Shown here: in pieces, positions 3,858-47,789 of the stretch
Layout of the letters: every line of letters begins with the position of its first letter
Position numbering within the stretch: the stretch's first letter is position 1
Assembly (NCBI GenBank): GCA_016203445.1
Contig: JACQMS010000019.1
Coordinates: 7,473 to 71,472 of the forward strand
Reading direction: 5' to 3'
DNA length: 64,000 bases
DNA from: Candidatus Woesearchaeota archaeon
GTDB taxonomy: Archaea > Nanobdellota > Nanobdellia > Woesearchaeales > ARS49
The notes under the pieces: generated by a model
The model's input: the letters and a program-made list of their open reading frames with translations, nothing else
Told to the model about the DNA's origin: nothing
Database searches by the model: none
Position numbers and translations under genes: made by a program

Positions 3858-4376
3858 TTATGATTTTCTCGCGGCTCTTTCCATTAAATAGTGTGATTCT
3901 TTGTCCATGTCTATGAAATGATCTGCTGCTTCTATTAGTTTTGCGCTCGTGCTTTTTCCGAAGCTCATAACTTCTACTCTGCACCCCATGGCTTTTTGCA
4001 GGTGTTCTACTAGAGGCACATAGTCTCCGTCACCTGATGCTAGTATTATGGTGTCGACTTTTGGCGCCAGCTGTATAGCATCTACGGCCAACCCAACATC
4101 CCAATCCCCTTTTTTTGCTCCTCCTCCAAATATTTGTAAGTCTTTGCTTTTTATTTCGAATCCTATGTTTGCTATTGCTTCGAAAAATGCTTCTTTGTCA
4201 ACTTCTTCAGTCCTTATAACGTATGACAAAGCTCTCACCAGTATTCTTCCATCGACTGCTTTTCGTAATAGCGTACTGTAGTTTACGTGTTTTCCGTAAA
4301 TATTTCTTGCCGTGTAGTACAAGTTTTGTACATCTACAAATACTGCAACTCTCTGCCCTTTGTGAATGTTAGCCAT
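3858..4376 (-). CDS. NYN-domain (LabA-like) protein, predicted RNase
   Basis: 'VAVFVDVQNLYY…' together with 'ILASGDGDYVPLV' is the NYN/LabA acidic-residue signature. Confidence 0.75.
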   Translation of the reverse strand: MANIHKGQRVAVFVDVQNLYYTARNIYGKHVNYSTLLRKAVDGRILVRALSYVIRTEEVDKEAFFEAIANIGFEIKSKDLQIFGGGAKKGDWDVGLAVDAIQLAPKVDTIILASGDGDYVPLVEHLQKAMGCRVEVMSFGKSTSAKLIEAADHFIDMDKESHYLMERAARKS

Positions 4377-4403
4377 TTTCTCACCTTTTTTTTTTGTTAA
4401 ATA

Positions 4404-4522
4404 AAAATGTCAAGAACCGCCGGGCTAAAGCTCGGGACGTGAGGTTATTGATCATGATCAGAAACCGCCTTCTTATTCCGAGCTGAAGCACGGATATTGC
4501 GAATGGCGGTTTCTGACATTTT
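4404..4522. repeat. Hairpin repeat element, copy A (terminal inverted repeat AAAATGTCA(A)GAAACCGCC … GGCGGTTTCTGACATTTT)
   Basis: 18-nt inverted termini. An internal GGGCUAAAGCUC hairpin and the motif 'GATCATGATCAGAAACCGCC' are shared with loci 36911-36967 and 47447-47755. Confidence 0.5.
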
Positions 4523-4622
4523 AATAAACCTCAAAATTTGCTTTGTACCCGCAATCAGTGCACAAAAATCCTTCTTGTTTTTCTTCTAGCGCTTTCTTTC
4601 CGCATTTTGGACAAATCTTCAT
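4521..4622 (-). CDS. Small zinc-ribbon protein (33 aa), below the ORF-track size cut-off
   Basis: Hand translation gives MKICPKCGKKALEEKQEGFLCTDCGYKANFEVY (CxxC…CxxC). Paralogous to the N-terminus of the 30302-30487 ORF (MRKCPKCGKK…CENCGY). Confidence 0.35.
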   Translation of the reverse strand: MKICPKCGKKALEEKQEGFLCTDCGYKANFEVY

Positions 4623-4623
4623 T

Positions 4624-4905
4624 TCATTTTGCCTGTATTGCTTTGCCTTTAATTCTTAGTTTGTAAATGTTTTCTATAAAGTCTGTTCCTGCATACCCCG
4701 CAAGTATTGCCAGCGGAAAGCTTGTAGATATTACTAGCGCCGCAAATATTCCTATTATTCCTGAGCCTAACAGCGATATTAGCATGTATAATGGTTTTAC
4801 TTCCCCTCTTTTTTTGGGAGTGTACAATTTTAGCAGTCCTATTACTGCTCTTGTGAACCCTCCTAGGAATCCGAATCCTGCATATATGAATATTTGCTCT
4901 GCCAA
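4624..4905 (-). CDS. Small membrane protein (hypothetical)
   Basis: 93 aa with three hydrophobic helices and a basic C-terminus. Confidence 0.4.
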   Translation of the reverse strand: MAEQIFIYAGFGFLGGFTRAVIGLLKLYTPKKRGEVKPLYMLISLLGSGIIGIFAALVISTSFPLAILAGYAGTDFIENIYKLRIKGKAIQAK

Positions 4906-5115
4906 TTTCTCACCTCTTTAGGGTTGTTTATTCATGAAAGGTTTATTAATTCTTTGGTATTGATGTACTCTGTTCACATTTAGAGACTACAAAAATCTTG
5001 GATTATTGCATTAGAGACTACACTTGCGCCCGTTCAGTTCACATATCAAAGCTAAGAGTTAAATACTGCCTCAACAATTTCCATCAGGTAACTCATAATT
5101 TAAAAAGGGCGCTTT

Positions 5116-5188
5116 GGGGTTGTAGTCTAACTTGGTAGGACTCGCGGTTCGGGGCCGTGCAATCCGGGTTCAAATCCTGGCAACCCCA
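5116..5188 (+). tRNA. tRNA-Pro (anticodon CGG)
   Basis: Hand-folded cloverleaf. Acceptor GGGGTTG/CAACCCC, D-arm GTCT-AACTTGGTA-GGAC, anticodon stem CGCGG/CCGTG with loop TTCGGGG, T-arm CCGGG-TTCAAAT-CCTGG, discriminator A. No encoded CCA. Confidence 0.75.
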
Positions 5189-5352
5189 TAAACATGTCAC
5201 ATGCAGAATTTATTATTGTAAGAAAAAGTTCTTGCATTCTGTCTTTAAGAATCTTCATAAAATTAATCCATTTCTTTTGGCAACGGTCAGCGTTATTTTC
5301 TTTCCAAAAATATAATATAGTTTTTTGTTCAAAAATTTTGAAGCGCTATTTT

Positions 5353-6156
5353 TTAAGTAGTTGTCTTTTCATCTTTTTTCCACTCTTTCAAACCACTATT
5401 GATTGATTCTTGTTCAATTCTTTTCTCATATGCTTCTTTGAAGATTTGCCTTTTGAGCTCTGCTCTTCTTCCTTCATGATCATATACTCTGTCGAGTTCC
5501 TCGAGGAGAATTTCTAAGTCTCTAATAACTTCTGGTCCAAGTGCTCCAAGCATTTTTCGTACGTAAAGAATAAGTGGCAGTGCAAAGTCTGTAGATGCAA
5601 AATATAATCCATCCCCTCTCCACTTGAGGAGTGGTTTTGTGATACCGTCACTTTGCTCTTCAAGCAGATATCTGTGAAGAAGATCGTAGATGACACGTCT
5701 TGTCCTATGGTGAAGCTCTTCATTCAATTGAATGAATTTGAGGTTTGACGTTGCTGAGATTCTTCCTGGCTCTGCATGGAATATATATTCGACTTTGAAT
5801 CCAATCGCGAATTGTTCTTTTTCTTGGAAGAGCGCATAGGGAGGTGTACTAACCAAAACTTGTTTTTTATCCCCATACGTCGCAAACGACCTTGTTGCCT
5901 GTATTCCTGAAGGTTCAAAGTATGGGTTTATGATACTAAGAAAAAGTGTTGAGAGTTGTTCTTCTAGGAGCTGTCTTTCTTTGATGTTCTGCCCTTGATA
6001 AAATCTAAGATCTTGTTTAATCTTGTCATGTTCTCTAAGAAAAAGCTCATACTCTCTTTGTTCTTCTTGTTCTAGATGGAAAAATGTTGTTGGAAATGAT
6101 TCTTTGTTTCCAACAAATAATTCTTCCTCTACAATACGCACTGCCTGAACATTCAC
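5353..6156 (-). CDS. Hypothetical protein (267 aa), no recognisable domain
   Basis: Long ORF immediately downstream of tRNA-Pro. Codon usage looks less T3-biased than its neighbours. Confidence 0.4.
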   Translation of the reverse strand: MNVQAVRIVEEELFVGNKESFPTTFFHLEQEEQREYELFLREHDKIKQDLRFYQGQNIKERQLLEEQLSTLFLSIINPYFEPSGIQATRSFATYGDKKQVLVSTPPYALFQEKEQFAIGFKVEYIFHAEPGRISATSNLKFIQLNEELHHRTRRVIYDLLHRYLLEEQSDGITKPLLKWRGDGLYFASTDFALPLILYVRKMLGALGPEVIRDLEILLEELDRVYDHEGRRAELKRQIFKEAYEKRIEQESINSGLKEWKKDEKTTT

Positions 6157-6389
6157 AGTTCAACCCCAAAACACCTCAATAGAAGAGTTGGATTAATAAT
6201 TCTTTTTAATACTTTCGCAATGTTAAGCTCAATACTTCTCCGTTTTTGATTGCGTCGAGGCGTTATACCTTAGCGCACCAGCTCGGGAAGCAGTTGCGCT
6301 CAAGTACTGAACAACCTCTGCTTTGGCTTTTAGTAATAGTAAATTGCATTAATTTTGTAACACCAGTCTATGGAAAGTTTCCGACATTT

Positions 6390-7265
6390 CTAAATCTCTT
6401 CTTTCATTACTATATCAAACTTTTCTTTGAAATCTTTTTTGTATTGTTCTACGCTTTTTCCTTTGAAGCACATTTCGTTGTAGTCGCAATAGTTGCATAG
6501 TTTGCTTAACTGTTTTGGGTAGTCTGTGTAGTTGTTGCTTTTCGTTTTTGAGTGTATTTCTTTTAAGTTTCTTATCGCGTATTGTACCAGTTCTTCGTTT
6601 ACTTCCAAGTGTTCTGGCGTTCCTCTAAGAAAGTATATTCCTGTTTTGTCCGGTAATTTCCCGTGTTTTTCTTTGTACAATAATGCGTATATTGCTAGTT
6701 GTAATCTGTGATCTTCTATGTCTTGGCTTTTGTTCGTTTTGTAATCCATTATTTTTACTCCTTGAGGTGTTTCTTCTATCATATCTATGAAACCTCTGAC
6801 TCCATGTTTTTCGCTTTTATATTCTTGTTCTCTTCTTGGTGTGAACGTTTTGAATACTTCTTGAACTGTTCCTGAATCTTTGTATTTTTGTAATTCGTGA
6901 GATTTTTGTATAGTCCAGTTTACTATCATGTGTAATGTTTCTTCGAAATATTGGACTGTTTCTTCTTCTGTTAGTCGTAATCTTGCTAGTTCTATATTGT
7001 TGTTTTTCCACTCTTTTATAAGTAATTGTTGTGCAGTCATTAATAGTTGTGGCTCCATAGTTTCCCATGACAGGTCTTCAGTGTTTTGATCATAAAAATT
7101 TTCTAGAACGCTGTGAACCATTTTTCCTCTAACTAGGTGTATGCTTGGTCTTGTTGGAAGTTCTTCTATGTAGTTGTAATAATATTTTCTTGGGCACTGC
7201 TTGAACGTTTTTACACTGCTGGGGCTTTCTGTTCTTCTTCCTAAAATTATTTGTTCAGTCATCAC
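6390..7265 (-). CDS. Cas4-like PD-(D/E)XK nuclease with an Fe-S cluster (DUF83/RecB-family exonuclease), stand-alone
   Basis: N-terminal 'SPSSVKTFKQCPRKYYYNYI' matches the Cas4/AddB N-terminal motif including the first Cys. C-terminal 'CNYCDYNEMC' is the C-x2-C-x5-C triad. No cas1/cas2 genes or CRISPR array nearby. Confidence 0.6.
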   Translation of the reverse strand: MMTEQIILGRRTESPSSVKTFKQCPRKYYYNYIEELPTRPSIHLVRGKMVHSVLENFYDQNTEDLSWETMEPQLLMTAQQLLIKEWKNNNIELARLRLTEEETVQYFEETLHMIVNWTIQKSHELQKYKDSGTVQEVFKTFTPRREQEYKSEKHGVRGFIDMIEETPQGVKIMDYKTNKSQDIEDHRLQLAIYALLYKEKHGKLPDKTGIYFLRGTPEHLEVNEELVQYAIRNLKEIHSKTKSNNYTDYPKQLSKLCNYCDYNEMCFKGKSVEQYKKDFKEKFDIVMKEEI

Positions 7266-7315
7266 TTTTTCATTTTTTTATGACTCTTGTTTCTTTATAT
7301 GTCTTTTGGTTGTTT

Positions 7316-7358
7316 TTCCGGAAATTTTCCGGTTTTCTCGGAAGATTTCCGGTTTTTT
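7316..7358. promoter_or_regulatory. Palindromic CCGGAAATTTTCCGG / CGGAAGATTTCCGG operator-like motif pair
   Basis: 'ttccggaaattttccggttttctcggaagatttccggtttttt'. The same motif recurs at 8166-8275. Confidence 0.35.
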
Positions 7359-7399
7359 CACCGCAACACACTTAAATAATTTTTTTTAATTGTTGTTTT

Positions 7400-7648: not shown

Positions 7649-8122
7649 TTAATCTCTTCCTCCTCTAGGTCTTCTGGTGTACTCTGTTAGTGTAAACTCT
7701 TCATATTCTGTGATTTTTGCTTTCGTCCATTCTTGTTCTTCAAATCTTGGGAAGTACGCGTCTCCTTCGTATTCTTGTTTTACCCATGATAGGTGTAGTT
7801 CTCTTGCGAATATTAGTGCTTCTGTGAATATTCTTTCTCCTCCTATAAACCATACTTCTCTTGTTGCTGCCGCAATAGCATCTTCCAGACTTCTCACAAC
7901 AATTATTCCTTGAGTTTCTGGCATAGTCCTGCTTACTACTATGTTTTCTCTGTTAGGCAATGGCTTGCTTCCCATGCTTTCATACGTTAATCTCCCCATC
8001 ACTACAGTTTTTCCTGCAGTTTTCTGCTTGAATATAGGAAGATCTCCTTTTAGTCTAGGCCACGGCAGTTTTCCTTCGTTTCCTATCACGTAGTTTTGTG
8101 TTAGCGCCGCTATTATGTTCAT
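7649..8122 (-). CDS. folA: Dihydrofolate reductase
   Basis: 'MNIIAALTQNYVIGNEGKLPWPRLKGDLPIFKQKTAGKTVVMGRLTYESMG…PLPNRENIVVSR' is the classic DHFR N-terminal signature. I placed the start at the internal Met. The annotated K/R-rich N-terminal extension runs through the repeat-rich intergenic region. Confidence 0.85.
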   Translation of the reverse strand: MNIIAALTQNYVIGNEGKLPWPRLKGDLPIFKQKTAGKTVVMGRLTYESMGSKPLPNRENIVVSRTMPETQGIIVVRSLEDAIAAATREVWFIGGERIFTEALIFARELHLSWVKQEYEGDAYFPRFEEQEWTKAKITEYEEFTLTEYTRRPRGGRD

Positions 8123-8165
8123 ATTTTTTTGTATATTTTGAACGGTTAATATATCTTGCGTTTTT

Positions 8166-8275
8166 TTCCGCTTTTTCCGGAAGATTTCCGGTTTTCTTTT
8201 AAGCCTCTCGTGATTCTTCCGGTTTTTTCGTTTGTTTTTCTGTTTTTTTACCCTTATTTTTCCGGTTTTTTCATC
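8166..8275. promoter_or_regulatory. Cluster of at least 5 TTTCCGG(A/T) motifs including the palindrome CCGGAAGATTTCCGG, in the folA / DUF1016 divergent intergenic region
   Basis: 'ttttccgctttttccggaagatttccggttttc…ttcttccggttttttcg…tttttccggttttttc'. Confidence 0.35.
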
Positions 8276-8313
8276 GATAGTTTTATCTTTTTTCGTTTTC
8301 ATATATTATTCTT

Positions 8314-14354: not shown

Positions 14355-14561
14355 ATGGAGAGTATAACTGTATTGCGGAAGGTTGGCGGATCTTTGGTTA
14401 CTACTATTCCTAGAAAAATTGTTGATCTTGAGCAACTATCATCAGGACAGGCAGTGCGTATTGTTGTTGAGCCTGTTAGGAAGAGTTTTTTTGGGGCTGT
14501 GAAGGGTATAGGTTCTTTTACCAAAAATGACGAAAGATGGGCAGAGGGAAGGGATGAATAA
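14355..14561 (+). CDS. vapB: VapB-type antitoxin (AbrB/SpoVT fold)
   Basis: 'VLRKVGGSLVTTIPRKIVDLEQL' is a swapped-hairpin motif. Overlaps vapC by 8 nt. Confidence 0.65.
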   Translation: MESITVLRKVGGSLVTTIPRKIVDLEQLSSGQAVRIVVEPVRKSFFGAVKGIGSFTKNDERWAEGRDE

Positions 14562-14940
14562 GTTTGTTTTGGATGCGTATGCATGGATTGAATATTTGAA
14601 TGGTTCTGAACGTGGAAACGCCATCGTTTCTATTGTTGATAATAAAAATAATGAAATTTTTACTTCGGCTGCAACTCTTTCAGAGGTATTAAGTAAATTC
14701 TTAAGGACTGGTAAAAGTGAATTTATAGCTATTAACTCAATTCATTCTTTATCAAGTGTTGTGCCAGTCAGTTCTGATATTGCTGTAGGAACTGCGCGCA
14801 TTCATCATGATCAAAAGAAGAAAAATAAAAATTTTGGTATGCTTGATTCATTTGTTGTTGCAACTGCTCAAAATGTTGATGCTAAAATTATCACTGGTGA
14901 TGACGATTTTAAGGGTTTAAAAAATGTTATTTTTATATAA
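14554..14940 (+). CDS. vapC: PIN-domain ribonuclease VapC toxin
   Basis: 'MNKFVLDAYAWIEYL…DSFVVATAQNVDAKIITGDDDF' is the PIN acidic quartet pattern. Confidence 0.75.
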   Translation: MNKFVLDAYAWIEYLNGSERGNAIVSIVDNKNNEIFTSAATLSEVLSKFLRTGKSEFIAINSIHSLSSVVPVSSDIAVGTARIHHDQKKKNKNFGMLDSFVVATAQNVDAKIITGDDDFKGLKNVIFI

Positions 14941-16030: not shown

Positions 16031-18232
16031 TTGGTTAAAGCTCAAATTTCGTTGTTCATAATAATCGCTCTCGCAATTTCTGCGATTGTTGGAGGTGTTG
16101 TTTACACCGTTCAATCTCAAAAGGTTTCTATTACAGAAGCAGAAATTTTGCAGGTTTCCAGAGCTCCTGTTGAAGCTAGACCTGTTGAGGATTTTGTTCG
16201 AGCGTGTATGGATGAAGCTTTGCTGCGAGGCGTTATTTCTGTCGGTGATCGCGGCGGTTATTCTCCCAGCGATTCTTTTTCTGTTAACCCTTCGGACCCA
16301 ACCGATTCTGAGGCCATTCCTCTGGCCGAAGGTGTTATTGATGGTTCTATACCTTACTGGCGTTTTATGTCTTCAAAAAATAAGGATTGCCCGAGTAGTT
16401 CCTGCGTTTTATCATCTAAAATGCCTTACTTGTTGAAGAGTGATGGTTCTCCATCAGTTGAGGGGGCCGTTGAAAAAGTTTCTAAACAATTCTTGCTTGA
16501 TTGTATTGCTGATTTTTCTCAGCTTAAAAATTCCGGCTTTACTGTCGTTCCTAAAAGTTCTCCATCTTTTTCTGCAACGATTAATGACCGAGGCGTTGTT
16601 GGAGTTTTAAAATACCCCATTATAGTTACTCGTGATGATAAATCCTATAATATTGAAACTTTTTATTCCAATGTTGAAGTTCCTATAAAAGATTTGTACG
16701 AGCTTTCTAGCGCTATTACCAAGGAAGCTGGTGATTCTAACTTTTTGGAATACTCTGTTATTAATTATCTTGATATGTTCACAGGTCTTGATGATGATTC
16801 TTTGCCTCCGATTTCTGATTTGGATTTGAGCCTTTCTCCAAAGTCTTGGAACGTTCTTGATGTTAAGGAAAAGGTTTCTTCATCAATTATTCCTCAAGCA
16901 ATACTTTTCTTGCAAGTTTTTCCTTCCAAAAATTATAAAGCTTTAGAATCCCCTTTTCCTTTGAGTGAGGAGAGGGAAGCCGTTTTCAGCATGCTTTACA
17001 ACAGGGATTTTAGGACTTCACTAATTAATAAAACTTCCAAGCCCATAATTGTTAACGTAAATTTTGAGCCCGTTACAGATTTTTCATTAACTCCATATTT
17101 TAAGATGAATTGTGAAGGTGTTTGTTCTGCTGAATCTTTGAACATTCTTGGAGTTCTTCCTTTAGGCATTCAAAAGTATAATTTTGCTTACGATATTTCT
17201 TACCCAGTCATTGTGAGGTTGGAGGATCCTGATGCTCTTAACGGTCTTGGATACTCTTTCCAGTTTGGCTTGGAGGGCAATATTAGGAGTAATGAGCCTG
17301 TTAAGGGTTCTTCGAGTATTGTTCAAAATTCTGATTTTTCTTCTACTATTTCTTTGTTTTCTCAGAAAGAGCATTGGACTTCCGGCGATGTCAAAATTGT
17401 TATTTCAGATCTCGTGAATCATGATAATAACGCCGCGGTTGTTTTCGAGTGCGGTACTAAAGCGGCATCTTTGGGTATTGTTAATAATTCTATTACTACA
17501 AAACTTCCCAGGTGTACTGATGGTCATCTTAGAGCTGTAAAGCAGGATTATTCTTCTTCTAACCCTAGAATTTCTACTTTTACCAGCGATCCTCAAATTG
17601 TTGGTATTGACATATCTCCCATAGTCCCTGTTTTCTTCACTGTAAAAAAGGTTCCCTTGACGAAGAATTCTGATAATAATTGGAATTTGCTTTCTGACCG
17701 CAGAGAGTCTCTTGATAACGGCGAGAGCGTTCTTGTAGTTCTTGACAAAATAGGCGGTGGTGATTCTATTACTGCTGTTAGCCAATTGTTTGGCGGCTCT
17801 GCTAAAACTTCCAGCACCAAGAATTCTAGCATTAGTGCCGGTGATTACTCTGTAAGCATGTTTTTAACAAGGAAATCCCCTAAAGGTGAGGAGGTCATAA
17901 TAATGCCTCAAGAGCGTTGTTATGGCCCTGGTGATCTAGGCGATGTAATTACTGGTGACGAGGAGTGTGCTATGGTTCCTGCAAAGCCCGAAGTTTTTAA
18001 TGAAACTAAACCTTTGCTTCTTGGCCAGTCAGAGTTTAACATGACTATAACTTCTGGAATGATTTCTGCTAAGGGTGTTAATATTAATTTGTTAGTTCCT
18101 TATGCTGATTTGAAAAGCGCCTGCGATTCTGGTATTTGCGTTATTGAAGATTTGTCAGTTCCTTCAACTGCTGGTGATTATGTTTCATTATACCCTGATG
18201 TTTTCAATCCTGTGGTGGTGCCTAAAAGATGA
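16031..18232 (+). CDS. Membrane-anchored 733-aa protein, first gene of giant surface-protein cassette 1 (paralogue of 44502-46508)
   Basis: N-terminal TM 'SLFIIIALAISAIVGGVVYTV'. Shared blocks with the 668-aa protein: 'RPVEDFVRACMDE…GDRGGY' versus 'RPVYDFVKSCAEQ…GLQGGF', and 'IPYWRF' versus 'TPLWYH'. Its stop overlaps the next start (ATGA). Confidence 0.55.
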   Translation: MVKAQISLFIIIALAISAIVGGVVYTVQSQKVSITEAEILQVSRAPVEARPVEDFVRACMDEALLRGVISVGDRGGYSPSDSFSVNPSDPTDSEAIPLAEGVIDGSIPYWRFMSSKNKDCPSSSCVLSSKMPYLLKSDGSPSVEGAVEKVSKQFLLDCIADFSQLKNSGFTVVPKSSPSFSATINDRGVVGVLKYPIIVTRDDKSYNIETFYSNVEVPIKDLYELSSAITKEAGDSNFLEYSVINYLDMFTGLDDDSLPPISDLDLSLSPKSWNVLDVKEKVSSSIIPQAILFLQVFPSKNYKALESPFPLSEEREAVFSMLYNRDFRTSLINKTSKPIIVNVNFEPVTDFSLTPYFKMNCEGVCSAESLNILGVLPLGIQKYNFAYDISYPVIVRLEDPDALNGLGYSFQFGLEGNIRSNEPVKGSSSIVQNSDFSSTISLFSQKEHWTSGDVKIVISDLVNHDNNAAVVFECGTKAASLGIVNNSITTKLPRCTDGHLRAVKQDYSSSNPRISTFTSDPQIVGIDISPIVPVFFTVKKVPLTKNSDNNWNLLSDRRESLDNGESVLVVLDKIGGGDSITAVSQLFGGSAKTSSTKNSSISAGDYSVSMFLTRKSPKGEEVIIMPQERCYGPGDLGDVITGDEECAMVPAKPEVFNETKPLLLGQSEFNMTITSGMISAKGVNINLLVPYADLKSACDSGICVIEDLSVPSTAGDYVSLYPDVFNPVVVPKR

Positions 18233-21200
18233 TTAATAATATTATCAACAAAACGGTTAGTGAGATAATTGATAAGAGCATTATTAACAAATTGTTTTTT
18301 CGCGGAGTATTATTGTTTTTGTCGCTGGCTCTTTACTCCGCAATAGTTCTCGGAGCTACTGCTTCGCTTGATGTTTCTTATACTGGCGCTCTAGGAATTA
18401 CTAATGTTGCTACTGCTAATGATAATATTACTTTCAATGTTCGCGTTAACCTTCCTGCAAGTCTTGACTCTTCACTTGATACAGGCCAGGTTCAATACTC
18501 TTTTGGTGGCAGAAGTGTTCCCATACCTTGCGCCGGTGTTAGCCTCGGTGTTTACGAGTGTTCTTTCTTGTTCAGTCTCAGAAATCAGCGTTCTAATCTT
18601 AACATTAACGTTTTGCTTTTCAAGGATGGTTTTATTGGCGACGTTAACAGGATTCACGCTTCAAAGTCTGTAACCATTTTTGTTGATTATACTTCGCCGG
18701 TTGTTGACAGGCTTATTCCCTCAAGGAAGGGTTCTCAAATAAACATTTCTTTTAGGGCTGTTGACGGCGGCGGTGATTGTTCAACTATTAAGAGTAGCGG
18801 TGTTAAGAGTGTTGAGTTTCGTTTGGGAACTCCTGATGGCGCGATTATTGATACCGTTCCGGGGCTTGAAGGTATTTGTTCTTTGAGTTCTGAATTTCTG
18901 TACACTCCGAATAGTCAAGGTGATTTAAGGATTTGCGCTATTGCCGAAGATTTTGCCGGCTTGAGGAGCGCTCCTAAATGCGCGCCTGTTGCTTTTGACA
19001 GCACTCCTCCTATCATTGGAGATTTTAACCTCGTAAAATTTTCTGATGATTCTTCATTATTGCAGTACGTTCGCTCTAGAGATAAGACTAGCGCGATAAT
19101 CAAGGGTTTTGTTATAGGTTCTGACACTAGTATTATAAAGATTGACGCTACAAAAATTATTGGTTCCGGCAGTCCTTTGATTGTTATGAGTAATTTGCGT
19201 CCTAACTCTAACAATATTACTAATATTAGCAGTACCGTTCAGGTTTCTCCGGGGACTATTAATGATTGTTCTTTTATTGTTACTGCTATTGATTCTTCAG
19301 GCAATGAACAGTCTCAAACTTTTTCTTGCGGCCCTCTAAATGTTGATGATCAAGGTCCCACAGTTTCAAATCTCCCCCAATCCGGAAGAGCTTTCAAAAT
19401 TTTTGATTCCTTCACTGCAGACTTTGCAGATCCTTCAAGTGTTAATGTTGGATCCATTGTTGCTTTTATTGGTTCTGTTGAAACTCCTAAAACTCGTTGT
19501 GATAATGAGCTCGCTGGAGTTACTCGCTGTTATTGGGATAATGTTATGTTTTCTAGGGGTGCTTCGAAGATTACTATTCCTAGAACTGTTTCTGACGGGT
19601 ACGACAACACTTTAGACTCTGATGTTATAATTGATATAGAAGTTGTTGGCGGCTCTCCCGGAATTTCTTCAACGTCTTTACAGTTTGAAGATTCCGGCGA
19701 TAATATTATTCCTGACAGAGAACTGGTTAGGGGCGGAAGGGCTAGATTTACTTTCCGTGTTGAAAACATTTCTGGAATTCCTAAAGCTAACTTTTCTATT
19801 ATTGGTATTAGCAGTCTTGTTGATGCTAACGTGTGCATTGATGATGTTGACGGCTTCAAGAATTGCACTTTTATTCCTACTATTGAGAGGGACGGCCCTT
19901 ATTCTGGTGTTGTTCAATTCATTTTTTCTGACAGGGCTGGAAACACAGTTATTAACAACAGAACTCTTGCAGTTTCTGGAGTGCACTCTGGAGTTTCTGA
20001 CTTTTGGAAGGTTAGCAGTGTTACTTGCACTCCATCAATTATCGACAGGTTTTCAGCATCCATTAAAGAATACCCAGTTCGTTGCAAAGTTGATCTTTCC
20101 CCAAAAATTTCTGGCAGTTTCACAACTTCAACCATTAGACTACACCCCGATTACGCTTCCAAGTGTTCCAACATTAATATTGTTGACGATTCAGATATTG
20201 ATGTTATGAATGGTATTACAGGAACTACGACCCCGTTCTTGAGGTTTAACCTCGCTAAGAGCGTTACTGGAGAGCCTCAGAAGAATTTAACTTGCCCGAT
20301 ACAAATATTTTCTGTAGTTACTAATTCTTCAGGAAAATATTTCTCTGAAATTCCTGAAGAAGAAAACGTGACAATGGTTTTGCGCTTTGGGGGCGGTACT
20401 GTTGATGACAAATTCTCAAAATATTACGGTGAGATGGATGACGCTATTGACGATGCTGAAAAGATTAATAGTTGGATTGGTGATACTAAGAAGTGGTTGG
20501 GAACTGTTGAAAGCATTTGCGGTTTTAAACAGCAATTGACTAATACCAAAATAGTTTTGGAAACTGCTACCGGGCTTATTGGAGGTATTGCAGAAACTAT
20601 AAGACCTATTGATGGCGGTAGTCTTGATTCATTTTATGATTTTGGAGCGTGTCCTACAACTGAAAGTTCCACTAAACTTTTGGAAAAGTTAGGAATTGGT
20701 GGAGGCGGTGATGGTAAAGGGTTGCTGTCAGAAATTGGCAGTTATGTTGACAAGGCTTGCGCCGTAGTGACTTGCAAAGGTTCTGCTGAAAATCTTCCTT
20801 GGTATTATGGCGGTGGAACTGCAGATATTGGCGGGATAGCGAGCGGGATGGATAGTGTACGAAATCGTGCTCAAAGTATTGCAGAAATATTTTCTCCCAA
20901 AGATCCTAATAAAAAGTTTGACACTTTTGGCACTGATGCGGATATTAAGAATTCTATAATATTGAGTGCTGTAAGACTTTGCATTCCCGGAATAATTCAC
21001 AATCTTGATAAGTATAATCAGATACAGTGCGAGTATGCTAGATGTCTTGTTGAGGACGTTCCTAGAAAGAACCAGCCTTCGAGGGTTTGCAGGATGGCTA
21101 AACAGTCAGCAACTTGCAGTCTTGTGATTGGTGAAGCTTACAGTATTCTTCCATTAAGAGTTTGGGATGATTTGATGAACAAGATTACAAAACTTTTTTA

Positions 21201-21453
21201 CGCTCCCGGACCAGTATTCATACAGCAAGCTGTAGGAAAGCTTTGCAGTACTTCTTGCGAGCAGGCGAAAACCGGCCCCGGGTGGAATTTTGTGAGGTTT
21301 TCTTGCGCCAGCGTTAGCTTGTGGTCAGAATCAAAAAACGTAATTGAAGAGTGGAGTTCTAAAAACAAATTCAAAGATTGGTGGTCTTCAGGCTCTAGCT
21401 CTTGTGATAATTTAGACGAGGTGAAGAAAAAATTAGCAGTACTAAAATCTTGA
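18229..21453 (+). CDS. Giant secreted/surface protein (1074 aa) with an N-terminal TM/signal and a Cys-rich C-terminal region
   Basis: N-terminal 'LFFRGVLLFLSLALYSAIVLGATASL'. Beta-rich S/T/N/G/D composition. C-terminal cluster of about 14 Cys. ATGA overlap on both ends. Confidence 0.55.
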   Translation: MINNIINKTVSEIIDKSIINKLFFRGVLLFLSLALYSAIVLGATASLDVSYTGALGITNVATANDNITFNVRVNLPASLDSSLDTGQVQYSFGGRSVPIPCAGVSLGVYECSFLFSLRNQRSNLNINVLLFKDGFIGDVNRIHASKSVTIFVDYTSPVVDRLIPSRKGSQINISFRAVDGGGDCSTIKSSGVKSVEFRLGTPDGAIIDTVPGLEGICSLSSEFLYTPNSQGDLRICAIAEDFAGLRSAPKCAPVAFDSTPPIIGDFNLVKFSDDSSLLQYVRSRDKTSAIIKGFVIGSDTSIIKIDATKIIGSGSPLIVMSNLRPNSNNITNISSTVQVSPGTINDCSFIVTAIDSSGNEQSQTFSCGPLNVDDQGPTVSNLPQSGRAFKIFDSFTADFADPSSVNVGSIVAFIGSVETPKTRCDNELAGVTRCYWDNVMFSRGASKITIPRTVSDGYDNTLDSDVIIDIEVVGGSPGISSTSLQFEDSGDNIIPDRELVRGGRARFTFRVENISGIPKANFSIIGISSLVDANVCIDDVDGFKNCTFIPTIERDGPYSGVVQFIFSDRAGNTVINNRTLAVSGVHSGVSDFWKVSSVTCTPSIIDRFSASIKEYPVRCKVDLSPKISGSFTTSTIRLHPDYASKCSNINIVDDSDIDVMNGITGTTTPFLRFNLAKSVTGEPQKNLTCPIQIFSVVTNSSGKYFSEIPEEENVTMVLRFGGGTVDDKFSKYYGEMDDAIDDAEKINSWIGDTKKWLGTVESICGFKQQLTNTKIVLETATGLIGGIAETIRPIDGGSLDSFYDFGACPTTESSTKLLEKLGIGGGGDGKGLLSEIGSYVDKACAVVTCKGSAENLPWYYGGGTADIGGIASGMDSVRNRAQSIAEIFSPKDPNKKFDTFGTDADIKNSIILSAVRLCIPGIIHNLDKYNQIQCEYARCLVEDVPRKNQPSRVCRMAKQSATCSLVIGEAYSILPLRVWDDLMNKITKLFYAPGPVFIQQAVGKLCSTSCEQAKTGPGWNFVRFSCASVSLWSESKNVIEEWSSKNKFKDWWSSGSSSCDNLDEVKKKLAVLKS

Positions 21454-24400
21454 GGAGTATTGTATTGATGGTTGTGATAATGAATATTTTCGTTGCAACC
21501 CTAGGAGTTATCCAGGATACTGATTCTATCAGCATCGGTGATGATACTTCTTGGATTGGTGAAAGGTATCCTATATTGGTAAACGGGCAAGAAACGGGGT
21601 TTTACCTCTCAAGTCGATCTAACAATAATTTCTACTTGATGAAAGATTCTTTTGGTCCTGACAAACAAGCAGGGATATTGCCGGTTCCAGAATCTGCTGA
21701 TAAACCACTGACTCTTCTTGGTGCTGGATCTTCTGTTGATGCTGATGCTCGAACAGAATATTTTTCATTGTTTGGAAGTAATACCAGAACAGCATCTGCT
21801 CTTCGTGATAGTATTAGAATATTTAATACACAATATAAATCATCATCAATAAATTCTCGAGACACTTCTGTAATTGTAAGCTCTTCGAGAACTTTGCAGG
21901 ATGCAGATAGTCAGGCACGGCAAGATTTGTTAGCTCGCTACTCAACTCCTAGAGAAGTAATAACCACTGGCGCTCAGCTTCCCGGGGAGTCTGCGTATGA
22001 TACATTGTTAAGAGAGGTTGAAGAAGCATTATCTTCAGGTGTAGAATTTACGACTTTAGTGCGTGATGATTTAATAAATGATATTGATATTATTAGAAAT
22101 TCTGCAGAGCCCGGATCTGCATTATCTGTAAGAGCATTAGAAGTTAGTGATAGACTGCAAGAAGTAACTCCTATTGATGCTTCAGCCATTGATGCTGCGC
22201 GTGCAGAAAGCTCTTATAACTTGCTTGTGGATGCGTCTGCTGGAGCCGTTCCTGACACTGGTCTGGGGAGTGGCGCTGACGAAAGTCCTGCAATAGCTTC
22301 AGCAACTAGCGCTAATGGAGGAACTCCTGTCACTGGAGTTTTTAATGCTGGTAGTGGAACTTCTCAAAATAGTGTAGATTTAAAACCCAATTCTGCTCTT
22401 TCTAAAACTGAAAAAGATACTGTTATTTCTAGATCTCAAGAGTTTTTCAGTCAAGATCCTAGTGAACAACTTTCTCGTCGTGCTGGAAAACTTAATAGTA
22501 TAGCAGTTCCCGGAACAACCCTTTACATTGTTGATAATTCTGGAGGTATGATTCCTTATATTGTAAAATCAAATGCGGGTAAGGGTGGTACTACTAATTC
22601 TGTTGTTTTAATAGGTTCTAATGGTATAGAACGTACAGTTACTGCTCAAGGGCTTAATGGTTATGATGTACAATTTGATCCTTCTCTAAGAGTTAGAGGT
22701 GCTGATGTTCAAAGAGCTATTAATTTTATTAAAGGAACTAGCGCGTCAACAACTACTACTCCTGCAGCTCTAACTCTAAATGATAGAATACTAAGTATTA
22801 GTTCAACAATAGTTGTTGATGGCGTAACTGTTGAGAATGAAAATGGTTATGAGTATTATACTTCCAAACCGACTCTTACAACTATTAGTTCTGGTTCTGG
22901 ATCTCAAGAGGTTTATGTTTATGATGTTAAAATTAATGATCGCACTTTTAGAAGTGATAGTGTTGTTGATAGGGTTTATGTTGATAAAAATGGAAATTTG
23001 GTAAGGGATACTTCTGGAAATGTTCTTACAAGTTCTAATATCGCGGGGGGTGGTAATATTGATTCTTCATTGCGTGATGAATGGCGTCAATTTGTTAATA
23101 AAGCTTTTACTGGTGATCAAAACAATGGCGGGGGTGTTGAATCGTTCATCGTAGGTCTTGGAAATATTCAAAGTAGAGTTTCTGTTACTGCTACTCGCGC
23201 TCCCGAACAAACTACTGATGGTACCGATAATGGTATAAGCACAGAAGCGGCGTTGGCACAAGAGCTTAGTAGACAAAGCACGGCTCATTTTGGTGCAGTA
23301 ACTGAAGGAGATTTTACTTCAACGGATTCTACAAACTCTCCTACTATTCTTAATGATATTCAAGATATTAATGAAGTATTATTGTCTGCAACGAATAATA
23401 ATAGAAAGCTTTCTCAATCAGAGGAAACTGCCGTTTTGAATGTTTTAAACGATGTTACTAATCAACTTCGCGCAACAACTAATGGAGGAACTTTGAAGGA
23501 TGCGAGTTCTACAGAACTTAACAGGATAAGAACTGCTTTACAACTTATGAATATGAGAATAAAAATAGTTACTAATGATGACTCTCAAGCGCGATCGGCT
23601 GTTATTTCAACGAAAAACTCTGTTCAGGATGTTTTGTATGAAAGAACTGCAATTACTATATCAGAAAATGCTGATGCAGATAATGCTGATGATGCATATT
23701 CCGACACACAATCACCTGTTACTTCTAGAGCTGTTTCGTTAACTTCTAGAAACGCTCCTACTGATGGTGTTAACATTGTTGTTAACGGAAGAACTGCTCA
23801 AAGTTTGAACGGTAACAATTTATACCTTTATACTAGTGACGGTGTTAATTTTGAGATTCGAGAAGATGTTAGAGCTTCATTGAACCCTTTAACTTGGTTT
23901 ACTAGTAAAGATCCTGTTATTGCGTCCGTAACTCTTGATGCGTCTAATAACTTGCGCGTCTCAACTCCTCAACCTCCAATAACCAATAATGGTGAGCAGA
24001 TGATTGGTAGTTTAACTAATGGTTTGAGAGTTTCAGATATTGAGAATAATAATATTTGGGGCGGTATTCTTGCAAGTGTTAAAAACGCGGTGAAAAATCC
24101 TTCATCGCCCGCAAGACCGACACCAGCACTAATACTTAGCCAAAAAGTTGAGGAAGTTAACCCTATTGTTACCGCCCCCACCCAACAGATTCAAGAATCC
24201 ACTCCCTCGATAAATACTTTACCAATTGTTAAGCATGATGCTATTACAACTCCCCTTACTGATTCTGAAGTTAGAGATACTGCCACTTCAATTTTGGAAT
24301 TGGTTAAAGCTGATGGCGTAAATGTTGATAGAGTTGCATTTGTTGAAAATTTTATATCTGATGTACAATCATCCAATACCATATTGTTAGGCAGGGATGC

Positions 24401-27400
24401 AAAAAATTTAATTGATGCTTTAAATAATCCTGCTAGAAAGTTTTCAGATGCCGAAAAAGTGCGTATTCAAGCAATGCTTCCAACATTAGAGAATTGGCGT
24501 GATACCAGATTTTATCCTCCTGACGGCTCTTCCGCAATTTCTAATGTAAACGTTCCACAAGGTAACATGGTTGTTCCTACGCCTTCTAAAATATCTATCA
24601 TTCTTCAGGACAGGGGTATTTTTAGCGACGGTTCTAACATACAGGTTGATGGTAATGTATTGAGTAATTCTGCTGGGCAAGAGTATTATGTTTCAGAACC
24701 TTCATCTGAAGTTCGCAATATTAATGGCGCTGATGAAACTGTTTACACTTATGAAGTCAGAGTTAATGACGGAGTGTTTTCTGATTCTGTTGTAGAACGT
24801 ATTATTATTGGTAGTGATGGTCGCATTATTAACAGGTTCACGAGCGGTCTTGATAGATCTAAGGTTAATGAATGGAATAATAATGTTAATATTGCTGTTG
24901 GAAAAGTTACGAAAAATTCTCAGACTGACGGCTCTCTAATATTTGCTAGATACATAGGGGTGCAGACTCTTGCAAATAATGCAGAATTTGGCAGTGATAC
25001 TGTTGTTGAAATTCCTTCAGATAAATCAGCAAGTAGCTCTCCTACAGTCACTTTTTCTTCTAGGGGTCTTGGTGATGGTGTCGCTTTAATAGTTAATGGT
25101 GTTACTGCCACTAGCGCTAATGGTAATCCATTATATCTTACCACCCGCGATAAAGGCAATACTTTTGAGGTTAGAGAAAGCGTTGGTTTTGGCACTGGTG
25201 GAATAACTAATATTTTCTCTACAGAATTTTGGGGTGCTGACAGAACTGTTACTGTTGCTACAGCAAATCCAGGAAGTGTAGCTAGCTCCAGCAATTCAAT
25301 TGCTCCATCAGTGACTGTTGCTAATGGTGATCTGAATATCGGTGGTGGCGTTAAATTAAGTGATGCACTTAATAATCCAATCATTGTTGCCGCTCTTAAC
25401 AATATAAAGGCGAAGCCTAAAGATGAAAATTTTAATCCTACAAACGCTTTGAGAAGTGCATTAGGTGATGTAAGTGTTCAAGTAGACACTGCAAATATTG
25501 AAGTTAAATCTGTACAAGTTCCCGCTACTACACCAGAACTCGATACTAATACTCCGGGAGTTCCTGAAAGTACTGCGCCCTCCCTTGCCGTTACCGCAAA
25601 CGCACCCTCTGAAGACGCTAGTGCTTTCGTCGCTAGTGATTCTACTAAACTAGATTCCTTTTTGGCAGATTCTTCTATACCTGGTGGATTTAAGAATAAA
25701 ATAAGAGATCTTACTAGAGGAGTGAGTGGTAATACTATTGGAAGTGCGAGTATAAATCCTGCCGCCAGAACTATAACTTATGCTGGTGGTTTAGTGTTAA
25801 CATTTGATAGTGATGGGAATTTATTATCTGGAGCTGATACTCCCGCCGCCCCTCAACCAGTCCTATCTCCAGAACTTTCCGCAACCGGTGATTCTGGTAG
25901 TGATGATAAATCTGCTGGATCTGGCTCGCCGCTCATGATTGGTGGTTTGCCTTTGACTCTTTTATCTCAAATTGCTGTTGATCATTTGACTGCGGTTGTT
26001 GATGTGCAGAGAAAGTTAAATCAGATATCAAGTGACATCCAAAATTCTCCTTCTACTGTCAGAGATTTTGTTATAAGTTCTATTACTAATCTTCGAGGAA
26101 TAAAATCTTACGATAAATCCAAGAATACTATTACGATGTCCGACGGTACTACTGTTTACTTTTCTGATGCTGGTAGAGTTGAGGTGAGAGATCATAACAT
26201 TAATATTTATCTAGGCTCATCAAGAAGTAGTTCTGTTACTCTTCAGGGTATTACTGATTATCCTGACCTTTCCAAACTTCCGGGAATTGTTAATGCACTT
26301 AAAAATGCGGGTGTTGAAGATAATGATTTGGTTGATGCAATAGAAAATAATGGTGTGGAATTCGATTTAGATACAGCATTTAATGGACTTACTGGCGGCG
26401 CTACTTCTGAGAAAATTACAATAAACCCTGATGGAACTGTCACAAGCATGCTTATCGATAATACTGGTAAAGAGTTCGGTTCTTACTCTGTTAGTGCTGA
26501 TGGTAATACTCTTAGTTACACCGTTAATGGCAAGCCAAGATTCTCAACCGATGTTGATGAGCATGGTAGTATTAATTCTTTCAGAACTTCTGAAAGAGAT
26601 ACTAATGGTGATGTCGTGCTTGGCAGTCCTGTCAATGTCATTCAATTTAATGATCGTAATGCTGGAAAGGTTGGAACTGTTGGCACCGGTTCTGATACTC
26701 GTGATGTTGTTGCTGATGCTAGCGGTAATTTATGGAAGGTCGAACCCGGTAGAGATGCTGTGGCGGAGTCCGGTAGTACTACCGATTCTCCTGCAGTTCC
26801 TGAAAGACTTGTTCCGCTAGATGATACGATAGAAGATGCTAGTGGTAAAACTGAGAAGGACAGATTTATGGAATCTCTCGGTAATGCTGCTGATGAAAAA
26901 ATTGGTGCCGCTTCTGATGCTACTAGAAGGCTAAATTCTCAGAAGTCTCTGAGTGATTGGTGGTCTGAGGATGTTCGTGGTTCTTCGTTGACTGATTGGG
27001 GTAACACAGCTTTTGTTACTCTTTTTGGTGCTACTAATACTAAGTATGATAATATTGCTGATGCTATTATGGATTCTTGGAATTCTGATTCTTGGAAGAG
27101 AAAGAGTGAGGAGTCTGTTAAAAAGTTGTGTGACAAATATGGTCTTGGAACTTTTAAAGAGTGCTATGCTTCTAAGATTTGTACTAGCAATTTCGTTACT
27201 ACTACTGGTCGTGGTGCTAGCGTTACTGTAGGTTCTCCTGCTGGAGGTTCTGCTGTTACTTTGGAAGCGTCTCGTTCTTTGCCTATTAATGATTCTTCAG
27301 GTACTTCTTACGTTTACACTGTAGAGTTTTACGTTCAGAATCCTTTGAAAGAAAATCTTTCTGTAAGCGTTGAACTTAGGGGTTCTACAACCAAGACTGG

Positions 27401-27733: not shown

Positions 27734-27822
27734 AGTAATATTGCCGCGATCGCATACACAAAATCTACGGATTTTGGTCGCGATCGTGTAATAATACAAT
27801 TTTGTTATGCCGCGATCGCATA
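27734..27822. repeat. Three spaced copies of the tRNA-Ser 5' end (GCCGCGATCGCATA / GTCGCGATCGTGTA / GCCGCGATCGCATA) with 36-37 bp periodicity; the third copy is the tRNA 5' end
   Basis: Direct sequence comparison. Each copy contains the 8-bp palindrome GCGATCGC/T. Confidence 0.4.
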
Positions 27823-27891
27823 ATCTGGTATTGCACAAGCCTGGAAAGCTTGACCCGCAAGGGTATCCCGGTTCAAATCCGGGTCGCGGCG
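27809..27891 (+). tRNA. tRNA-Ser (anticodon GGA), class II with a long variable arm
   Basis: Acceptor GCCGCGA/TCGCGGC, discriminator G. 3-bp D-stem GCA/TGC. Anticodon stem CAAGC/GCTTG with loop CTGGAAA. Variable arm ACCCGCAAGGGTATC. T-arm CCCGG-TTCAAAT-CCGGG. Confidence 0.8.
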
Positions 27892-28009
27892 CTAAACTTC
27901 TTTTTGGTAATTATTGTATTGTGTTGACATATATCGCTAGAATCTTGAATCTGAGGTGTTAACTCTTAGAGTTAAAAACATTTAAATAAACCATTATTAT
28001 CGTTACGGT

Positions 28010-30301: not shown

Positions 30302-30487
30302 CTACTTTCTAGTTCTCGTGCTTCCTCCTGTTTTGTATGCTTGTCTGTGTTTTGTTTGTGTTTTTTCTGTTGGCAACTCTTCATACTTTTCGCTTTCGTC
30401 ATAACCGCAATTTTCGCATTCCGATAGCTTTATTCCTTCATAATTGTATTCTTCTGTTTTCTTTCCGCATTTTGGGCATTTTCTCAT
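30302..30487 (-). CDS. Small zinc-ribbon protein
   Basis: 'MRKCPKCGKK…CENCGY' is a CxxC…CxxC ribbon with a basic C-terminal tail. Confidence 0.4.
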   Translation of the reverse strand: MRKCPKCGKKTEEYNYEGIKLSECENCGYDESEKYEELPTEKTQTKHRQAYKTGGSTRTRK

Positions 30488-36910: not shown

Positions 36911-36967
36911 TCTCTGGGGATGTCAAGAATTGTCGGGCTAAAGCCCAGAGCGCGAGGTTGTTGATCT
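36911..36967. repeat. Hairpin repeat element, copy C
   Basis: 'GGATGTCAAGAATTGTCGGGCTAAAGCCCAGAGCGCGAGGTTGTTGATC' is about 80% identical to the 5' half of copy A, including the GGGCUAAAGCCC hairpin. Confidence 0.45.
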
Positions 36968-38098: not shown

Positions 38099-38356
38099 TT
38101 ATAGATATACATTTTCTCTGTTGTCAAAAGAAACTATTATTATTGTTTTTGTATCATAATTAATTCTGTAAAGTGCTCTGTATTTTCCTATTCTTATTCT
38201 GAATGTTGGTAATTCATAACCAGTAATTCTTTTTGAGTCGTGTGGAACTGGGTTTGTTTTCAGTAATTCTAACTTTCCAACAATTCTTCCGAATAGAATG
38301 TTCTCACATTTTTTCAAGAACTTTTCTGGTTGCTTATCTAACTTTATTTCGAACAT
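38099..38356 (-). CDS. relE: RelE/ParE-family toxin
   Basis: '…LKTNPVPHDSKRITGYELPTFRIRIGKYRALYRINYDTKTIIIVSFDNRENVY' is the classic RelE/ParE C-terminal pattern. Confidence 0.7.
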   Translation of the reverse strand: MFEIKLDKQPEKFLKKCENILFGRIVGKLELLKTNPVPHDSKRITGYELPTFRIRIGKYRALYRINYDTKTIIIVSFDNRENVYL

Positions 38357-47380: not shown

Positions 47381-47446
47381 ATTAACCCCTTTTTATTGAC
47401 GAAATTTCGTCGTTGAGTATATAAATATTGCGCATGTTTTGGCTTA

Positions 47447-47755: not shown

Positions 47756-47789
47756 AGATTTTTATGATTAGTAATTGAATCGCTAACCA

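Follow-up and report, generated by a model that had tools for sequence, protein, structure and literature searches.

A 64,000-nucleotide stretch of DNA from a Candidatus Woesearchaeota archaeon (GenBank assembly GCA_016203445.1, contig JACQMS010000019.1, positions 7,473 to 71,472; the whole stretch is referred to here as the window) carries copies of a previously undescribed family of short palindromic repeats. With a probability of about 0.7 we interpret these as non-autonomous mobile DNA elements of Woesearchaeota-type DPANN archaea, the closest analogy being with the repetitive extragenic palindromes (REPs) and bacterial interspersed mosaic elements (BIMEs). The exact motifs are not found in the searchable literature in this context, where the motif strings matched only unrelated primers or sequences. 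Six significant units are present in the window, two at 4407–4519 (copy A) and four at 47449–47693 (copy C), together with one decayed unit at 36920–36966 (copy B) and one lone arm at 6370–6387. The original prediction, made from the letters alone, had described three loci, at 4404–4522, 36911–36967 and 47447–47755, with sequence modules common to both strands. All three were recovered, while the fourth site, the lone arm, had been missed.

Anatomy of the unit and the doublet

When all copies are read together the unit is an imperfect palindrome of the form 5′ RTG-TCARRAAY-(variable stem extension and loop)-RTTYYTGA-N-CAY 3′, and every unit can be read in this form on one strand. It is made up of a foot of 2–3 bp (TG/CA, often ATG/CAT), a single extrahelical base, which is T in 31 copies and G in 17, and a conserved 8-bp box, TCARRAAY/RTTYYTGA. 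The interior, which we refer to as the cargo, is 3–6 nt long in 13 copies and 11–55 nt in 35. The minimal units, consisting of the 8+8 bp box, a loop of 3–6 nt and the foot, are only ~19–25 nt in length.

The commonest arrangement is a tail-to-tail doublet around a common CATG centre (…TGA-K-CATG-M-TCA…). The two hairpins of a doublet carry different boxes, TCAGAAAC in the hairpin that we call S and TCAAGAAC in the one that we call L, and the arms therefore pair inside their own hairpin rather than across the doublet. Units are also seen alone (423–479 of locus L017), in arrays (1839–2085 of L016) and nested in the loop of another unit (L009). The inner feet are better preserved than the outer ones, with CAT kept in 45/48 and ATG in 32/48, respectively. 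As the extrahelical base lies on the 3′ arm of one hairpin of the doublet and on the 5′ arm of the other, the hairpins are mutually inverted. The S and L cargos of copy A have apical hairpins that are likewise inverted copies of each other, and the doublet thus has the look of a single ancestral unit that was duplicated in inverted orientation. Copy A had been thought to be bounded by a perfect 18-nt inverted repeat. The repeat is present, with arms TCAAGAAC and TCAGAAAC, though it matches at 16/18 positions, and the perfect inverted repeat of this copy is instead a 12-nt pair (4458–4469 and 4505–4516) lying inside one hairpin.

Covariation of the stems

A covariance model of one hairpin unit, R1, was built from 17 natural short-loop copies. 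Within the window it detects the six units with E = 6e-7 to 1e-4, the next match having E = 0.1, and when the window is taken together with 17 archaeal loci it gives 49 matches to 48 distinct units. Standard pairs occupy 96.5% of the pair cells in the alignment of the 49 matches, and this figure falls to 32–49% once the 3′ partners are slid. Two-sided changes are found in 65 cells against 20.6 ± 6.8 in shuffles, a value reached by 0/500 of them; in the test for compensatory changes on aligned copies that had been put forward with the original prediction, the hairpin stems covary strongly. The three variable extension pairs next to the box are Watson–Crick in 41/45, 29/35 and 26/35 copies, where permutations give means of 18.6, 10.0 and 11.3 and maxima of 27, 21 and 23. 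Furthermore, the S and L variants always agree within one hairpin (pairs 11/102 and 12/101), the difference between them being itself compensatory in each hairpin, GC/AU versus AU/GC at two adjacent pairs.

On both strands the folds are far more stable than those of shuffled sequence, with z = −4.5 and −5.4 for copy A, −6.9 and −6.3 for the first doublet of copy C and −5.7 and −6.2 for the second. Copy B folds on the plus strand only (z = −1.9 versus +0.6).

The prediction that the loci contain no open reading frame (ORF) held up, as they show no coding potential and the frame, the stop and the loop length vary between copies. A small peptide starting at the ATG of the element was rejected for the same reasons, the loop lengths not being multiples of three. 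That the loci are neither tRNAs nor members of another known RNA family was also borne out: only two tRNAs in the window reach the Rfam 15 gathering score and the loci are unmatched at E ≤ 1 in the window-wide search. By inspection, C/D box, H/ACA, k-turn, hammerhead core and bulge-helix-bulge motifs were discarded, since the boxes are plain Watson–Crick helices with a single 1-nt bulge. The UCAG pairs with CUGA as a regular helix with no two-sided pocket, and where a hammerhead core would have CUGANGA…GAAA, the junction, CUGAGCA or CUGAUCA, has C in place of the essential G.

Distribution in other genomes

A scan with the junction pattern of one genome collection and one metagenome collection gave 11 and 15 loci, respectively. 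The true matches are to Woesearchaeota or to metagenome-assembled genomes classified no further than 'archaeon', and to metagenome contigs, with G+C contents of 24–51%, and the 8-bp box is highly conserved in genomes of 26–51% G+C. In 215 kb of fetched loci R1 found 43 matches, all in archaeal contigs (~17), so the motifs are not restricted to the window. It found no units among the bacterial junction-pattern matches, which lie inside ORFs, or in a viral chance match. That one was the sole pattern match in the viral contigs and lies within a coding sequence; the plasmid and phage collections gave no pattern matches. Residence of the elements in viruses, plasmids or phages is thus not supported.

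The density varies considerably. There are nine units in 10.9 kb of L017 and four in 10.7 kb of L015, which may be set beside the six significant units, one decayed unit and one lone arm in the 64 kb of the window. A further unit is found at the contig end of L027, from the same organism, ~1.4 kb past the window start. The Woesearchaeota relatives L032, L041 and L043 have no units in 14–20 kb each, and the relatives L035 and L036 have one each in ~20 kb each, that of L035 being weak (24 bits).

Several short-read contigs from the source organism of the window (among L027–L031, L039 and L040) have an end that lies within an element, as would be expected of repeated palindromes. L027 begins within copy A, in its S cargo, and stops within a further A-type unit, while L030 and L031 begin in the first unit of the third locus. 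The records for L006 and L009 are titled 'uncultured Methanosarcinales archaeon'. For L009, which has a G+C content of 36%, this label is probably wrong, because the named relatives of its ribosomal protein L3 are all from Woesearchaeota or Nanoarchaeota (60–66% identity).

Gene context and insertion

The copies are flanked by housekeeping genes, such as those for LysRS, CTP synthase, SecD/F, HD hydrolases, RsmI and rpl3. Nearly all are intergenic, and they are found in both orientations between genes that are tandem, divergent or convergent, for which reason the suggestion that they act as terminators, or as elements of an mRNA, was dropped. In L011 one ORF extends into the element and stops at the element's TGA. 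Related types of cargo are present at non-syntenic sites of different genomes (copy A of the window, L003, L005, L015 and L027).

Copy A fills 113 of the 144 nt between a Zn-ribbon ORF (4521–4622, −) and a gene for an NYN-domain protein (3858–4376, −). In the relatives L032, L035 and L036 the Zn-ribbon ORF either abuts the start of the NYN gene (0–1 nt) or overlaps it, with no such spacer, and copy A therefore interrupts a gene pair that abuts in relatives. At the nucleotide level, the doublet at 4748–4866 of L009 (119 nt) can be compared with an empty site in L047, where the rpl3 proteins are 88% identical and the stretches from RsmI to rpl3 ~93% identical over common positions. The insertion is precise. 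It lies at …TTTATTTTATA^TCAGRGGTGG…, with a positional ambiguity of at most 1 nt and no target duplication. The inserted piece extends from CG-TCAGAAAT to GTTTTAGA-CA, which implies that the TG/CA feet belong to the element and that the target can supply the A and T at the outer ends of ATG…CAT. More generally, no target duplications beyond the palindromic AT flank the 21 doublets. The flank on the S side has a conserved motif, T-W-R-A-A (T in 16/25, T/A in 21/25, G/A in 22/25 and A in 23/25), and the L side has no comparable motif, only a weak A-T preference. The elements have thus been dispersed, and have inserted without duplicating their target. The original suggestion of MITE-like elements (MITE, miniature inverted-repeat transposable element) is supported, as regards mobility, by this dispersal, the patchiness and the clean insertion, but the elements are not classical MITEs.

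The copies in the window

Copy A is one complete doublet (4407–4519, −). On the minus strand the S hairpin (4519–4453) is followed by the L hairpin (4456–4407), and R1 matches them at 4451–4523(−) with 40.2 bits and 4403–4458(+) with 33.3 bits. Read along the plus strand, the first half comprises ATG (4407–4409), TCAAGAAC (4410–4417), a cargo (4418–4443) with the hairpin GGGCTAAAGCTC, GTTATTGA (4444–4451) and the extrahelical T (4452). The second half comprises the central CATG (4453–4456), A (4457), TCAGAAAC (4458–4465), a cargo (4466–4508), GTTTCTGA (4509–4516) and CAT (4517–4519).

Copy C had been described as two tandem units in 47447–47755. These are two tandem doublets, though the units end at 47693, and 47694–47758 is a separate hairpin. 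In the first doublet (47449–47539, +) the S hairpin (47449–47514) has TCAGAAAC at 47452–47459, a 43-nt cargo akin to that in the S hairpin of copy A, GTTTCTGA at 47503–47510 and an extrahelical G at 47511. The CATG centre (47512–47515) leads into a minimal L hairpin, with TCAAGAAC at 47517–47524, the loop CGCA, GTTCTTGA at 47529–47536 and CAT at 47537–47539. The R1 matches are 47445–47517(+), 38.8 bits, and 47510–47543(−), 38.0 bits. In the second doublet (47547–47693, +) the S hairpin has TCGGAAAC at 47550–47557, a 54-nt cargo in which TTTCCAT and ATGGAAA extend the stem, and GTTTCTGA at 47612–47619. After G-CATG-A (47620–47625) the L hairpin has TCAAGAAC at 47626–47633, a 49-nt cargo, GTTCTTGA at 47683–47690 and CAT at 47691–47693. 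This doublet is matched at 47543–47626(+) with 34.7 bits and at 47619–47697(−) with 30.8 bits.

The hairpin that follows (47694–47758, +) is nested, with GAAAGCGTC…GACGCTTTC around CTCCACAC-TTTA-GTGTGGAG and then a T run. From its sequence it may be a decayed member of the family, as it starts with TCAGAAAG and contains CTGATCAAAC; it has neither an R1 match nor an Rfam match.

Copy B is a solitary decayed L-type hairpin (36920–36966, +) between the divergent genes 35846–36853(−) and 37011–38048(+). It has ATG (36920–36922), TCAAGAAT (36923–36930), a cargo with the hairpin GGGCTAAAGCCC, GTTGTTGA (36957–36964) and T (36965), the CAT foot having been lost. The locus at 36911–36967 is therefore a real copy, as had been proposed, but a single degenerate unit that R1 does not detect even at E ≤ 10. 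Copies A and C had been said to share some 50 nt at about 80% identity, including a small hairpin with a UAAA loop. A repeat search confirmed the likeness, which is inverted and covers 85 nt at 81% (4440–4524 against 47444–47528), and found a 28-nt junction three times in the window. The hairpin, GGGCUAAAGCYC, is instead common to copies A and B, where copy B and the L hairpin of copy A (4407–4453) have 81% identity over 47 nt.

The lone left arm (6370–6387, −), ATG-TCGGAAAC-TTTCCAT on the minus strand, lies directly after the stop of a gene for a Cas4-like PD-(D/E)XK nuclease (6390–7265, −). In inverted orientation it agrees at 22/23 positions (96%) with 47542–47564, a unit's left arm together with its flank. 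No partner arm was found nearby, and a unit that was rearranged or deleted has probably left this arm behind.

Other features of the window

The window has a G+C content of 37% and is cellular rather than viral, with genes for SRP54, class II LysRS, an Lhr helicase and thioredoxin/DsbA-like proteins and for tRNA-Pro(CGG) and tRNA-Ser(GGA) (5115–5189 and 27809–27892, respectively). A phage origin was excluded, there being no match to phage DNA and the cellular genes SRP54, LysRS, Lhr and the tRNAs being on board. The NYN-domain protein has many homologues at 60–70% identity, again from Woesearchaeota, and the source organism is also found in the Logan assemblies SRR12113383-85.

Some 600 nt separate the tRNA-Pro gene from copy A. 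Next after this tRNA gene come an orphan gene, the lone arm, the Cas4-like nuclease, a DHFR and a YhcG-type PD-(D/E)XK nuclease, and the stretch from tRNA-Pro through the YhcG-type nuclease might be an integrated element. Within it, 213 nt without an ORF (6157–6369) separate the gene at 5353–6156(−) from the lone arm. They contain a hairpin, AGCGCA…TGCGCT, have no Rfam match and no similarity to the other DNA collected for comparison; a larger element may have left them behind, or they may be an unfamiliar RNA. A different repeat, the palindrome TTCCGGAA (for example TTTTCCGGAAATTTTCCGGTTTTCTC), is clustered at 7289–7359 and 8148–8292, on both sides of the DHFR-like gene (7649–8302, −); the clusters may be operator-like sites or another repeat family.

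A direct repeat of 59 nt (75% identity) links 4569–4627, which includes the beginning of the small Zn-ribbon ORF lying upstream of copy A, with 30434–30492, the start of the CPKCG-type ORF 30302–30487(−). These ORFs are paralogous Zn-ribbon genes. Very large ORFs (733, 1074, 2077, 1956 and 668 aa) stand in runs at 16031–27683 and 38635–46508; they are nearly without family matches, apart from weak Ig-like or glucodextranase-B matches, and resemble the giant surface proteins common in DPANN archaea. Toxin–antitoxin-like genes (a MazE-like antitoxin, a PIN domain protein and a ParE-like toxin) are scattered at 1644–1970, 14527–14940 and 38099–38356, and at 9138–9395 of L030. A sub-threshold Rfam match to dinG RNA at 55121–55215(−), within a glycosyltransferase gene, is most likely due to chance (30.2 bits where the gathering score is 46.9; E = 0.38). 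Avoidance of GATC and CATG was also considered and dropped, the observed/expected ratios of 0.72 and 0.76 being unremarkable.

Discussion

The conserved box, the extrahelical base and the covariation within each hairpin suggest that it is the folded single strand that is recognised. A short motif next to the insertion point, with no duplication of the target, is the signature of HUH-type single-strand transposition, as carried out by IS200/IS605 and by the REP-associated tyrosine transposases (RAYTs), or of site-specific recombination, and not of DDE transposases. Taken together these features favour a trans-acting enzyme that moves whole doublets. It would seem likely that the unit folds as a bulged hairpin when the DNA is single-stranded, possibly on the lagging-strand template or during repair. 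An enzyme encoded elsewhere in the genome would recognise the box, the extrahelical base and the foot, and the whole doublet would be copied or moved to a new intergenic site without target duplication, preferably one that adjoins a T-W-R-A-A motif on the S side, with the loop cargo presumably hitch-hiking. Copy B and the lone arm would then reflect decay after spread. The mover is probably an enzyme that leaves no target duplication and possibly one of the HUH type; by analogy with IS200/IS605 and REP-RAYT, our best guess for its class would be a Y1-type single-strand transposase.

Several observations weigh against this interpretation. No transposase or recombinase domain was found among the ~50 window ORFs scanned, nor any Y1 or RAYT protein by tblastn in 346 kb, though the latter, with IS200, IS608 and E. 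coli RayT as queries, is a weak negative. The 335-aa protein encoded next to copy C (47790–48797), whose N-terminus is helix-turn-helix-like by eye, was considered as a transposase and rejected, since a search of 5.8 billion proteins gave only 4 homologues and it shows no sign of being multi-copy. According to a survey of Y1 HUH proteins in complete genomes, RAYT/REP systems are present only in Bacteria, and Archaea have only the IS200-type TnpA (PMC6006769). The hairpins of the doublet are mutually inverted, unlike the direct left-end and right-end hairpins of IS200/IS605, and only one filled/empty pair is available at the nucleotide level. In addition, some parts of the cargo are conserved in sequence across genomes of 37–49% G+C, for example ATTCGCAAT…TAAGA. 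Mere hitch-hiking does not seem to account for this, which could reflect a role as RNA or in the binding of a protein.

An automated census from 2024 placed one 'Woesearchaea' genome, with ~105 MITEs/Mb, among the archaea richest in MITEs and did not describe the families (PMC11602168). A tentative extension of our interpretation, and one that we hold to be doubtful, is that the elements are substrates of an unrecognised DPANN transposition or recombination system, either an archaeal counterpart of REP-RAYT or a new class of enzyme. This would act on bulged single-stranded hairpins and insert doublets without duplication, the structured cargo in the loops being tolerated or exploited and some of it maybe being expressed as small RNAs.

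The strong stem covariation and the stable folds would also suit a family of small structured RNAs, in which the conserved double stem would give all members the same handle, to be processed by or to bind a protein, and the loop cargo, variable or conserved, would be the functional part. Such RNAs would be transcribed on their own or processed from longer transcripts. The unpaired sequence and covarying apical hairpin that some cargos keep across genomes point the same way, as do, by inspection, the TATAAATA ~26 nt upstream of the first base of copy C and the hairpin and T run after it. However, a TATA-like box at about −26 precedes copy C and L001 and is absent before most copies, so that an own promoter was rejected, and inspection of the flanks revealed no consistent motif resembling a TATA box or B recognition element upstream of the others. 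The mixed orientation of the copies is not decisive here, since the doublet is pseudo-palindromic and its core would fold alike from either strand, but the asymmetry between the strands in G-U versus A-C (17 versus 8) is not significant either. Minimal copies, of which there are many, have loops of 3–5 nt and no cargo, and the loci searched alone gave no Rfam match at E ≤ 10 apart from unrelated chance rows. A guide-like role for the cargo was unsupported, as none of its 20–22-mers is matched exactly in viral contigs and the cargos lack complementary targets in the 346 kb, both weak negatives. The clean filled/empty pair and the patchy distribution point to mobile DNA, although mobile DNA can be transcribed, and we consider an RNA family unlikely as the explanation.

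Insertion without target duplication and an extrahelical base, as in integron attC, would also be expected if the elements were sites for a tyrosine-type recombinase, similar to folded sites of the attC or dif kind. The junction of 22–26 bp, GTTYYTGA-K-CATG-M-TCARRAAC, would be the full site, with two inverted 8-bp arms around a 6-bp core, while integration would have left hybrid half-sites at the outer ends. The geometry of the junction is like that of a core site, it is the most conserved part of the element, as the counts for the inner and outer feet indicate, and the T-T-G-A-A of the S-side flank resembles the tail of an arm. Against this, the boxes are by inspection outside the attC consensus RYYYAAC/GTTRRRY, no integrase gene or gene cassettes adjoin any copy, and the arms covary with their partner across the loop and not across the junction, which argues for hairpins rather than duplex sites. 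Such sites therefore seem to us quite improbable. Bacterial REP and BIME elements do serve host roles in chromatin, topology and regulation or as terminators. The elements might likewise be cis-acting DNA or RNA structures of the host (for chromatin or topology, as sites for regulatory proteins or as bidirectional terminators), spread by ordinary duplication and recombination rather than by dedicated transposition, in keeping with their intergenic placement and with a box that is conserved across genomes of widely differing G+C. They are absent, however, from close relatives that keep the same genes, show no preference for 3′ ends or promoters, and include nested, tandem and decayed copies that look like selfish spread and decay. 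A host role of this kind fits the patchy, polymorphic distribution poorly and is very unlikely.

DPANN genomes are very small and streamlined, so a repeat family present at about one unit per 1–10 kb in some lineages is unexpected baggage, and such a density points to a putative active mobilising enzyme. If the elements are indeed the archaeal analogue of REP/RAYT, they would extend hairpin-guided mobility of single-stranded DNA to a new domain and provide a handle for finding the enzyme; the interest would grow if this proves to be new. On a practical level, the elements fragment short-read assemblies of their host genomes, can lengthen the ends of genes, as for the ORF in L011, and are useful as markers when strains are typed or contigs tied to bins of Woesearchaeota.

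Comparison with known systems

The boxes of integron attC sites and of the elements described here both end in AAC/GTT, and both structures are folded imperfect palindromes with an extrahelical base and a variable terminal structure (from 3 nt to long). The outer boxes here are TCARRAAC/GTTYYTGA, however, with purines where RYYYAAC/GTTRRRY needs pyrimidines. There are no cassette ORFs, the units being 6 nt apart or separated by housekeeping genes, and IntI was not found.

Classical MITEs, such as Correia, ERIC and the SM elements of Sulfolobus, are similarly non-coding, intergenic and multi-copy with terminal inverted repeats, and size variants arise through internal insertions, as in ERIC. 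They differ in having target-site duplications, in that the minimal units here are far shorter, and in that no parent insertion sequence with such ends was found: no pairs of arms enclose an ORF in the DNA examined, and viral contigs, plasmids and phages gave no true match to the elements. Given the lack of target-site duplication and the size of the minimal units, the elements are not classical MITEs, and REP/BIME is closer.

As in IS200/IS605 and the palindrome-associated transposable elements (PATEs), recognition probably depends on hairpins that have an extrahelical base. Insertion without duplication is seen here too, and it may, judging by one empty site and the one-sided 5-nt flank, take place beside a short motif and with polarity, and IS200-type TnpA does occur in Archaea (PMC6006769). 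The hairpins at the ends of IS200/IS605 are direct, on one strand, with the cargo between them, whereas here they are inverted and adjacent with the cargo inside the loops, and there is no tnpA or tnpB near the copies.

REP elements and their clusters (BIMEs or REPINs), which are mobilised by RAYTs of the HUH Y1 type, differ in several respects. Their RAYTs are reported only in Bacteria (PMC6006769), the host here being a DPANN archaeon, and none was found in the window ORFs or in the 346 kb searched. Every REP unit has a GTAG/CGTC tag, where the elements have T-W-R-A-A on one side of the doublet only, and the loops here carry up to 55 nt of structured cargo. A REPIN forms one long hairpin, whereas these are tail-to-tail pairs with a bare CATG centre whose arms pair locally. 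The likenesses are nevertheless extensive. Both are short imperfect palindromes with an unpaired base, extragenic and in many copies, both have variants that alternate in inverted orientation in clusters (here the S/L doublets, the two tandem doublets at 47449–47693 and the arrays of L016), and both lack target duplication and have a short conserved flank at the foot of the hairpin. While classical MITEs, PATEs and integron attC sites each miss at least one defining feature, REP/BIME is the closest of the known systems.

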